Below are positions 35,843-36,873 of a DNA stretch of 64,000 nt, one piece after another; position 1 is the first letter of the stretch, and every line of letters begins with the position of its first letter. This DNA comes from Enterobacteria phage KhF1. The position numbers and the translations under genes are program-made. The DNA lies in sequence record KT184313.1, one strand, 5' to 3'. The notes under the pieces are model-generated. The model searched no databases and was not told the DNA's origin. It saw only the letters and a list, made by a program, of their open reading frames with translations.

Positions 35843-36430
35843 ATGAAACTGTTAAATATCAAAATCACTGGTACTCGTCCTTTCCTGAGCCACGCTGATA
35901 CGCTGTCAGACCCATTAAATCCTCTGACAAAATATCACAAGTCTCTGTCCAGTAAACGTAAAAAGACTGACGAAGACTATGCGCTCTTAGCAGAAAGTCA
36001 ACTGGTAACTTCTTGTTACTACGATGAGCAACTAGGTTTTGTTATGAACGGTGAGATGATTGAGGCTTGTATCAAGTCTGGTGCAAAACTAAACAAACTT
36101 GGTAAGGTAATTGACCGAGCCATTATGCTGACAGATGTAGTCTTCCCAATGACTATCAAGAATTGTCCAGCAAACCCACAAGAACTTGCTAAGAATCCAG
36201 ACTTTATCTATGCTAAGTCTGTTAAGATTGGTACAGCACGAGTTATGAGCTACCGTCCAATCTTCCGTGATTGGTCTGTAGAGTTTGGTTTGATGTTCGA
36301 TGAAGAGCAAATCACCAAAGAGGAACTTCTGATGGTTCTTGAAAATGCTGGTAACCTTTGTGGTGTAGGTGATTGGCGTCCACGCTTTGGTCGTTTTTCT
36401 GTAGAAGTTATTTCAGAAGGTAACGTTTAA
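35843..36430 (+). CDS. Hypothetical protein (about 195 aa)
   Basis: ORF 35828-36430 with likely ATG start at 35843 after GGAG. Confidence 0.45.
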
Positions 36431-36432
36431 TT

Positions 36433-36873
36433 ATGAATACGAAAGCATTAGCAGCAAAGTTTAGTTACGGTGACACTGTATCACATTCTGAGATGGACAC
36501 CTTCTTAGGTATTGTGAAACCAACTTATCAAGGTGACATTGTTAAGTACGAAGATGAAATGAAGGCTTATGCGCTTACACGTCTAAACCGACTTGAGAAG
36601 TTTATTGAGAAGCTTCTTAAAGAAGAGAAGATTTATCTGGTTGCTTCAATGGGTGTTGGTTATCGTGTGGTTGAACCTAAGCATCAAGCAACTATTGCAA
36701 AACGTAAAATGTCTGGTAAGATTGGTCGTGCTTTAAAGCAAGCCACTCAAGCAATTGAGAATGTGAACACTATGGCACTTAGTCATCAAGAACGTTCACG
36801 GTTGATTGAACAGCAAAACCATTTAGCTGCTATGAAAGCTAACATTAACAAGCAACGCAGAAAACCTTTCTAA
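36433..36873 (+). CDS. Hypothetical protein (146 aa), basic C-terminus
   Basis: ORF 2 nt after upstream gene; followed by strong terminator. Confidence 0.45.
   Translation: MNTKALAAKFSYGDTVSHSEMDTFLGIVKPTYQGDIVKYEDEMKAYALTRLNRLEKFIEKLLKEEKIYLVASMGVGYRVVEPKHQATIAKRKMSGKIGRALKQATQAIENVNTMALSHQERSRLIEQQNHLAAMKANINKQRRKPF

Follow-up and report, generated by a model that had tools for sequence, protein, structure and literature searches.

What is encoded immediately downstream of the DNA ligase gene of Enterobacteria phage KhF1, where two genes lie among the copies of a composite repeat? The initial annotation of this locus, made on the 64-kb stretch of the phage genome analyzed here (the window), described a self-contained cassette of two genes without recognizable motifs, flanked by direct repeats, whose moron-like layout would be typical of exchangeable accessory cassettes, including anti-defence or host-takeover genes. 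We conclude, with a probability of about 0.93, that positions 35455-37020 form a complete type II VIPR (Viral Interference Programmable Repeat) locus of the SUSP1 clade, with guides aimed at a satellite element of Escherichia coli. The VIPR identity of the cassette is already known from 2026 preprints on the near-identical SUSP1 locus (bioRxiv 10.64898/2026.04.26.720920, 10.64898/2026.04.26.720927), in which VIPR is defined by the minimal RAMP protein Vipr, the accessory protein Vap, and vrRNAs consisting of 9-16 YNNGG repeats and a pseudoknotted 3' tail.

With respect to layout, the two co-directional genes, encoding 195 and 146 amino acids, lie exactly where the initial annotation had placed them, and the two repeat copies before the genes, as well as the UUCG terminator-like hairpin and the third copy after them, were all located (Table 1). 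The proposal of an own promoter and terminator is borne out by near-consensus signals, which are consensus matches only. The promoter stands upstream of repeat copy 1, ahead of the upstream vrRNAs, vipr, and vap, and its sequence is retained identically in the phages SUSP1, Si3, and skuden. At the other end of the cassette, the T run of the terminator-like hairpin overlaps the start of the w3 leader; the w3 gene sits downstream of this hairpin, and no promoter for w3 was identified. The vipr ORF is also listed in a 200-aa version with a GTG start. The cassette is neighbored by the DNA ligase gene and small genes of unknown function. KhF1 is a Felix O1-like myovirus (Ounavirinae). Across the 1.7 kb around the cassette, it is 99.2% identical to Enterobacteria phage KhF2, its closest match, and identity to many Felix O1-like phages of Escherichia, Salmonella, and Shigella is 90-95%; the best-matching records for the locus are Felix O1-like and not Suspvirus.

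Table 1. Features of the KhF1 VIPR locus (positions in the window)
Feature	Position	Strand	Basis or remark
ATP-dependent DNA ligase gene	34347-35447		immediately precedes the cassette
Sigma-70-like promoter, TTGACA-16-TATACT	35455..35482	+	11/12 matches; consensus match only
Composite repeat, three copies	35513-35638, 35641-35766, 36901-37020		
vrRNA w1 leader hairpin (CATCACTTAAG...CTTAAGTGATG), leader-motif copy 1	35513..35551	+	inverted repeat and motif scan
vrRNA w1 guide tract, 11 YNNGG units	35552..35606	+	
vrRNA w1 3' tail, type B (GTAG...AGTCTCA-GCTAC-ATTAAAA-TGAGACT), hairpin and pseudoknot	35607..35638	+	covariation, both helices
vrRNA w2 leader (CCTTTTTAAAAGGTCTTTAAACAGGGTCTTTTAAT), leader-motif copy 2	35641..35674	+	
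vrRNA w2 guide tract, 12 YNNGG units	35675..35734	+	
vrRNA w2 3' tail, type A (GTGG-AT-GGTAG-TA-GCCAC-GTTAAAAAT-CTACC)	35735..35766	+	
Third leader-like motif copy (TAAAGAGTCTTCTGTTGAGGGTTCTTTAC)	35774..35805	+	motif scan; just upstream of the vipr ribosome-binding site
vipr ORF, 195 aa (ATG start)	35843..36430	+	
vap1 ORF, 146 aa	36433..36873	+	
Intrinsic-terminator-like hairpin AGCCTC-TTCG-GAGGCT (UUCG loop)	36885-36900; with T run to 36906	+	
vrRNA w3 leader (CCTTTTTAAAAGGTCTTTAAGAGGGTCTTTTAAT), leader-motif copy 4	36901..36933	+	
vrRNA w3 guide tract, 11 YNNGG units	36934..36988	+	
vrRNA w3 3' tail, type A' (AAGG-AT-GGCAG-TA-GCCTT-ATAAAAAAT-CTGCC)	36989..37020	+	

The absence of a recognizable motif in the two proteins holds for Pfam, NCBIfam, and PADLOC, none of which returned a significant match, and their two PHROGs families are of unknown function; it does not hold for function, which is known through the identity of both proteins to SUSP1 Vipr and Vap1. 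A profile built from 47 homologues of the 195-aa protein gave one strong PDB match, 36pp_D ("SUSP1 Vipr protein"; E = 3.1e-79), and the KhF1 and SUSP1 proteins are 98.5% identical (tblastn). The structure of SUSP1 Vipr has been solved (PDB 36pp) and described with cryo-EM in the preprints. Using the contact residues named there that touch the GGY bases, the skipped target base, or the non-target strand, and that could be checked, we observe in KhF1 the same 13 residues (H17, K33, R39, E71, M72, K82, G87, K88, R138, C173, D177, W178, and R179); position 175 is V in KhF1 and T175 in the cryo-EM paper. The AlphaFold2 model of the protein (pLDDT 95.4) has Csm3 and type VII Cas7 subunits as its top Foldseek matches (E down to 4.7e-5, probability 1.0, TM about 0.5), in a PDB copy older than the Vipr depositions, and a C-terminal motif resembles the RAMP glycine-rich loop. 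As judged from sequence and predicted fold, the 195-aa product is Vipr, a minimal, Cas7-like RAMP, which would bind vrRNA as described in the literature. Its detectable homologues number 520, with lengths of about 190 aa and identities of 35-50%, and occur in very distant phages and prophages, including those of Rhodococcus, Streptomyces, and Gordonia.

The 146-aa protein is 99% identical to the product of the SUSP1 gene next to vipr, vap1, and an exhaustive phmmer search returned 234 relatives. In all three distant loci checked, the vipr homologue is directly followed by a gene of 166-182 aa whose product has the wing motif G-Y-R-V-V-E-P (GYRVVEP) in common with the KhF1 protein, and the pair is kept in Rhodococcus, skin-metagenome, and JGI phage loci. 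This pairing indicates that vipr and vap form an old, conserved two-gene module that is not private to Felix O1-like phages. The AlphaFold2 model of Vap1 (pLDDT 96.2) consists of an N-terminal helix-strand-helix, a long helix, a beta-hairpin wing, and a C-terminal helical hairpin. Foldseek gave weak matches only (best E = 0.34), nearly all of them to winged-helix proteins (ScpB, OmpR-type DNA-binding domains, histone H1, and MarR), so that the N-terminal part of the model appears weakly winged-helix-like, in agreement with the label used in the preprint. In type II VIPR the vap1 product is predicted to bind DNA, and co-expression of vap1 enhances protection in the preprint work.

The repeats are where our reading departs most from the initial annotation, which had described them as direct repeats flanking an exchangeable cassette: they are guide-RNA genes of the same system. 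Each repeat contains a period-5 (YNNGG)n tract with a hairpin/pseudoknot after it, and this tract, overlooked earlier, is the functional core of the repeat. For the exact core of copy 3, the window contains one occurrence versus 0.00 expected by chance, and Rfam holds no family for the KhF1 repeats. Each of the three vrRNAs, which we call w1, w2, and w3, opens with a leader carrying the motif RRGTCTT-N5-7-GGGTYYTTTA, which is locus-specific and present in four copies, one of them before the vipr ribosome-binding site, as is also found in SUSP1. The w1 leader is the same as the leader of SUSP1 vrRNA1, and the w2 tail is identical to the SUSP1 vrRNA1 tail; the type A' tail of w3 differs from type A by compensatory changes. 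The w1 units read TTTGG TAAAG TATGG TTCTG TCCGG TAATG CGATG TATGC TATGG TTTGG TGTGG, with 5 of the 11 lacking a full GG because the first G is degenerate or, in one unit, because GC takes its place. The NN series of w2 is AA CT CG CC TC AG TG TT TT CT CT AA, and an identical guide is present in an IMG/VR relative (L013); that of w3 is GA AC GC TA AA CT AG AG GA TT AT. Units 1-10 of w3 are the same as in a 12-unit guide of relatives, joined to the terminal tail, and from its sequence w3 looks like a chimera of these two parts. Outside the Felix O1-like phages, period-5 G-rich tracts followed by hairpins are also found upstream of the vipr-vap pair in a JGI phage (L007) and a high-GC phage from a skin metagenome (L003), and their position beside vipr homologues indicates that the repeats are functionally tied to the genes.

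Comparison among close relatives separates what is kept in the vrRNAs from what varies. The 20 loci whose Vipr is at least 97% identical contain 78 arrays with 61 distinct guide tracts, in which entropy is 1.87-1.92 bits at the NN positions versus 0.1-0.7 bits at the Y and GG positions, the low values being in part circular, since these positions served to detect the arrays. GGY and tails are thus kept among near-identical phages, and the NN dinucleotides vary widely. The number of vrRNAs per locus ranges from 3 to 5 among relatives, and their order differs as well, with two upstream and one downstream in KhF1 versus one upstream and three downstream in SUSP1. Aligned without gaps, 14 distinct tails show the 4-bp pseudoknot helix paired in 100% of cases, with three pairs covarying, and the 5-bp stem in 97%, with 5/5 pairs covarying, so that compensatory changes are seen at 8/9 pairs. 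This covariation score was reached by 0/500 shuffles, and pairing in slid controls was 29-41%. The tails did no better than shuffled sequence in minimum-free-energy folding, and it is therefore covariation that argues for the tail structure.

If the tracts are guides, their targets should follow the noncontiguous code of the SUSP1 work. The element concerned was located by comparing the locus with 5,426 complete E. coli genomes in blastn. Chromosomal, unannotated matches resembling a vrRNA guide tract and tail were found in 128 genomes. They belong to an integrated element of ~11.5 kb that occupies several chromosomal positions, for example within yecE or adjoining tonB, wrbA, or dinB, and a segment of it is present in 468 genomes. 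It carries genes for a serine recombinase, an HNH protein, and baseplate and tape-measure proteins, in addition to several unknown genes. The baseplate protein shares 80% identity with its KhF1 counterpart, encoded at 49903-50670(-), and the tape-measure proteins of the two are related, which fits a satellite of this phage family. These E. coli satellites carry a single promoter-driven vrRNA with a SUSP1-type tail and neither vipr nor vap; the satellite vrRNAs target other satellites, and against the KhF1 window they reach at best 19/28, a background level, which indicates no targeting. In the SUSP1 clade, for which 41 vrRNAs are given in the preprints, a satellite phage of E. coli is targeted by 18 of the 20 vrRNAs with identifiable targets (bioRxiv 10.64898/2026.04.26.720920, 10.64898/2026.04.26.720927).

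We scanned 22 satellite loci with the NN code of each KhF1 guide, in a mismatch-tolerant manner and under rules skipping 0, 1, 2, or 3 nt. Guide w1 matches at 22/22 NN positions under the 1-nt-skip rule only, at L048:8116-8147(-) (TTAAAGATGTCACCAAAGGAAATCATCTTTGT) in E. coli O125ac C 236-04A (NZ_CP109924, satellite at about 3.036-3.050 Mb), and at ≥19/22 at the same site in 12 of the 22 loci. Skips of 0 or 2 gave no match of ≥77%, a skip of 3 gave only unrelated matches of 17/22, and the maximum over 300 unit-order shuffles was 18/22. The site lies in frame within the 5' part of a 236-aa satellite gene (protein WP_264455149.1; peptide at the site, LKMSPKEIIFV), and its skipped bases are all at codon wobble positions; natural targets with the skipped base at the wobble position are reported in the preprints, too. 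The w1 result is an independent in silico replication of the 1-nt-skip rule.

For w3, 18/22 NN positions (82%) match ~46-85 bp upstream of the 236-aa gene, a score reached by 2/300 shuffles, and its 12-unit parent guide matches at 21/24 upstream of the same gene. A score of 19/22 for w3 at 18215(-) in the window, obtained under the wrong 2-nt-skip rule in a purine-rich stretch, was rejected and treated as chance because 1/200 shuffles scores equally. The mismatch-tolerant scan of the 22 satellite loci found no target for w2, and scans of IMG/VR, GTDB genomes, and JGI metagenomes with exact gapped patterns returned nothing for w2 or w3. A relaxed w2 pattern occurs at 21-22/24 in two IMG/VR contigs encoding a calicivirus-type coat protein, with the skipped base at codon position 1; we rejected this match and judged it to be chance. 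There are no self-targets of ≥80% within the window.

By analogy with SUSP1, KhF1 most likely uses VIPR to silence the parasitic satellite in E. coli. Expression of vrRNAs, their co-purification with Vipr, and silencing of transcription on double-stranded DNA have been demonstrated for SUSP1 and Pseudomonas fulva in the preprints. Carried over to KhF1, each pentanucleotide repeat would be bound by one Vipr protomer, which would bury the GGY bases and present the two variable NN bases; the NN dinucleotides would pair with double-stranded DNA, every third target base being skipped, and the bound filament would block transcription of the target. We assume that the degenerate w1 is loaded by Vipr in the same way. 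Within the satellite, w1 would then read the 5' part of the 236-aa gene, and w3 the stretch directly before that gene, with the ~11.5-kb element in E. coli chromosomes, which carries tail genes related to the phage's own, as the object of the KhF1 guides. Assembly of the ribonucleoprotein, binding of double-stranded DNA, silencing, and enhancement by Vap1 may all be expected in KhF1 from this literature. In place of anti-defence or host takeover in their usual sense, the cassette would be an RNA-guided, DNA-binding silencer aimed at a phage satellite.

The closest known system is SUSP1 VIPR itself: it shares its promoter, its leaders, and all three tail types (A, A', and B) with KhF1, lies at the corresponding position between the DNA ligase gene and a 127-aa gene, and has YNNGG guides of 11-12 units that target the same E. 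coli satellite family; the two differ in that none of the three KhF1 guides equals any of the four SUSP1 guides. The type II VIPR of a Pseudomonas fulva prophage likewise has vrRNAs, vipr, and vap1, with an R-loop triplex mechanism according to the preprint, but it is distant in sequence, belongs to a temperate prophage, and directs its guides mostly against regulators of resident prophages. Vipr is like the Cas7 family of class 1 CRISPR-Cas (Csm3 of type III-A and Cas7 of type VII) in its RRM core, glycine-rich loop, and thumb, and also in oligomerizing along a guide RNA with periodic base flipping. Unlike class 1 CRISPR-Cas, the KhF1 locus has neither cas1/cas2 nor other cas genes; a VIPR locus is phage-borne and has one small protein and an accessory protein. 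It also contains no CRISPR repeat-spacer array of identical repeats and contiguous spacers, the repeats being leader/(YNNGG)n/tail units, and the VIPR guide is noncontiguous, unlike that of CRISPR, in that 2/5 of its RNA bases pair with 2/3 of the DNA bases. VIPR is proposed by the authors of the preprints to be older than CRISPR. As a lytic phage with an RNA-guided system aimed at an integrated parasitic satellite, KhF1 also recalls ICP1, whose CRISPR-Cas acts against the PLE satellites of Vibrio cholerae. The ICP1 system is a complete type I-F CRISPR-Cas that acquires spacers and degrades DNA, whereas VIPR is without an adaptation module and silences without cleaving.

The distribution of the locus bears on the idea of an exchangeable accessory cassette. 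Vipr at ≥90% identity is encoded in 117 phage records, versus 230 records sharing DNA with the locus, so that about half of the related phages are without vipr and vap, a single vrRNA being left in them. In Si3 and skuden, vipr-vap is missing at the same site, the ligase and the downstream gene being separated only by the promoter, a leader, and one vrRNA with a SUSP1-type tail. The comparison of relatives and the remote-homology and structure searches, both proposed in the initial annotation as checks, gave variable presence, a 36pp_D/Csm3-Cas7-like Vipr, and a weakly winged-helix-like Vap1, and neither clear homology to replication or structural proteins nor invariant presence in relatives was found. 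Because presence varies, the accessory-cassette idea is partly right; the part that does not stand is the role of the repeats, which are guides and not passive flanks.

Could the genes nevertheless be two effectors in a moron-like cassette, acting in anti-defence or host takeover, with the repeats serving only as exchange or recombination sites? The promoter-like and terminator-like signals that bracket them, their varying presence, and the lack of matches in Pfam, NCBIfam, and PADLOC would all be expected of such a cassette. We consider it very improbable, since both proteins are nearly identical to the experimentally characterized SUSP1 Vipr and Vap1, and since the repeats have full vrRNA anatomy with hypervariable NN positions and covarying tails, match a satellite gene perfectly under the gapped code, and recur in the same type beside vipr homologues in unrelated high-GC phages. 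An origin of replication or iteron region, with the G-rich period-5 repeats as binding sites for primase or initiator and the winged-helix protein as origin binder, is harder still to credit. It draws on the ligase gene and thus a replication gene neighborhood, on the winged-helix likeness of the second protein, and on GGGTC, TGGTC, and GTGTC strings in leader and tract, which we take to resemble T7 primase sites; yet related phages lacking vipr and vap still replicate, the variable positions obey the NN code and fit a foreign element, and the fold of the first protein is that of a RAMP. Since the tracts are explained by the Vipr match and the NN target code, we also dropped readings of the tracts alone as wrapping a TRAP-like ring protein, as Rho-loading sites on the antisense strand, as two-tetrad G-quadruplexes, and as origin iterons or primase sites.

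An alternative that accepts the VIPR identity is that the locus is in decay, with intact proteins and an array collapsed to three vrRNAs from the 4-5 of relatives, and contributes little or nothing in KhF1. The five w1 units without GG, the w3 junction between units 1-10 of a 12-unit guide and the terminal tail, the 3-5 vrRNAs of relatives, the loss of vipr-vap in about half of the family, and the lack of a w2 target in the satellites and collections scanned are all compatible with it. We nevertheless regard decay as unlikely, given that both ORFs are full length with all checkable functional residues of Vipr kept, that promoter and tails are intact, and that internal first-G degeneracy is common in vrRNAs, including SUSP1 vrRNA3; the "degenerate" w1 is, moreover, the sole guide with a perfect natural target. 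A complete VIPR locus directed at the satellite is thus the reading that we retain.

The arrangement of the vrRNAs invites a further and more tentative idea, namely that the guide RNAs, and not the whole system, are the mobile evolving unit, with solo vrRNAs possibly borrowing Vipr from a co-infecting or helper phage and the leader motif acting as a modular signal; we hold this to be possible, with the odds against it. The chimeric w3 and the differing layouts suggest that arrays are remodeled by recombination between vrRNAs, without Cas1-like adaptation machinery. As orphan guides, the solo vrRNAs of Si3, skuden, and the E. coli satellites could still be functional, and the locus-specific leader motif could be a processing or loading signal, or a Vap1 binding site, that makes exchange modular.

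VIPR is a recently reported form of RNA-guided DNA recognition with a noncontiguous code, and the present analysis leaves the published picture unchanged. To it we add the three KhF1 guides, a perfect natural target of w1 with its null distribution, and signs of array remodeling, as well as the solo vrRNAs in vipr-less relatives and the locus-specific leader motif. Hypothetical proteins and puzzling repeats in more than 100 Felix O1-like genomes can thereby be annotated as one system whose targets are predictable. Its role lies in conflict between mobile elements, and a specific host strain and gene are now available for this conflict between phage and satellite. With respect to phage therapy and typing, Felixounaviruses differ in carrying VIPR, and how well they perform on satellite-bearing E. 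coli could be influenced by this difference.

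We observe four copies of the leader motif RRGTCTT-N5-7-GGGTYYTTTA at the VIPR locus in a scan of the window, and the rest of the 64 kb holds a single weak look-alike, at 5038. This motif, of which we found no mention in the accessible portion of the VIPR preprint text, could signal processing or loading, form a promoter element, or provide a site for Vap1. With respect to the guides, the w3 tract (36934-36988) is identical to units 1-10 of a 12-unit guide found in four related loci (L018, L020, L021, and L024, 4092-4151), in which this parent guide is that of the first downstream vrRNA; in the window w3 carries the tail that, as a rule, closes the last vrRNA of the array. 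Judged from sequence, this union of part of the relatives' guide with a terminal-vrRNA tail suggests that the array in the window contracted through recombination between vrRNA units. A purine-rich site at 18215-18256 on the minus strand matches 19/22 NN positions of w3 under the nonfunctional 2-nt-skip rule, probably by chance, since 1 of 200 shuffled w3 guides equals that score.

Coordinates of leader-motif copies, vrRNA sites, and REP-like palindromes
Feature	Locus	Position (nt)	Remark
RRGTCTT-N5-7-GGGTYYTTTA copy	window	35523-35547	before w1 guide tract
RRGTCTT-N5-7-GGGTYYTTTA copy	window	35651-35676	before w2 guide tract
RRGTCTT-N5-7-GGGTYYTTTA copy	window	35778-35803	just 5' of vipr ribosome-binding site
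RRGTCTT-N5-7-GGGTYYTTTA copy	window	36911-36935	before w3 guide tract
Solo-vrRNA site, Salmonella phage Si3	L049	1200-1400	vipr and vap absent
Solo-vrRNA site, Escherichia phage skuden	L050	1350-1545	vipr and vap absent
Satellite vrRNA (example)	L034	19984-20085	
Satellite vrRNA (example)	L048	12776-12877	
REP-like palindrome (AGGCCTGATAAGC.TAGCGCATCAGGC)	L033	24535-24575	
REP-like palindrome (AGGCCTGATAAGC.TAGCGCATCAGGC)	L040	17814-17854	

At the site that the VIPR locus occupies in the window, the felixounaviruses Si3 and skuden retain the promoter, the leader hairpin, and one 11-unit vrRNA with an A' tail. This single vrRNA could be the scar that a deletion between vrRNA units left behind; alternatively, it could be an orphan guide, which might use Vipr supplied in trans.

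Among the distant loci, an actinobacterial phage from a skin metagenome carries three GGC-rich period-5 tracts (L003, 7560-7965) 5' of its vipr-vap pair. After each tract comes a hairpin similar to a tRNA acceptor/T-arm minihelix, with the loop GGUUCGAnUCC. These hairpins match Rfam tRNA partially (24.3 bits, E = 0.021, under the family threshold), and ARAGORN called no tRNA in them; as tRNA-like signals, they could direct the processing of vrRNA arrays. The words "tRNA" and "RNase" are absent throughout the main text of the VIPR preprint. In the Rhodococcus globerulus chromosome (L001, 7380-16300), the vipr-vap pair lies inside a small (~9 kb) integrative element; a fragment of a tRNA 3' end and a tyrosine integrase form its boundaries. 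Directly 5' of this pair there is no obvious YNNGG tract, and the pair may belong to a different VIPR type or be served by a single distant vrRNA.

In each of the E. coli satellites (L033-L040 and L048) there is a single vrRNA, whose tail is of the SUSP1 type; this agrees with the VIPR preprint (bioRxiv 2026), which remarks that the satellites themselves encode vrRNAs. The satellite guides have matches in other satellites (e.g., the L039 guide matches L040 at 20/22), and we observe none in the phage window. The vrRNA common to L033, L040, and L048 also matches chromosomal REP-like palindromes at 23/28 NN positions when the 1-nt-skip rule is applied, which may be an effect of chance or composition. 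Searches with tblastn returned no vipr or vap matches in any of these satellites; as read from their gene content, possession of a vrRNA without vipr or vap implies that they would depend on the Vipr of a helper phage.
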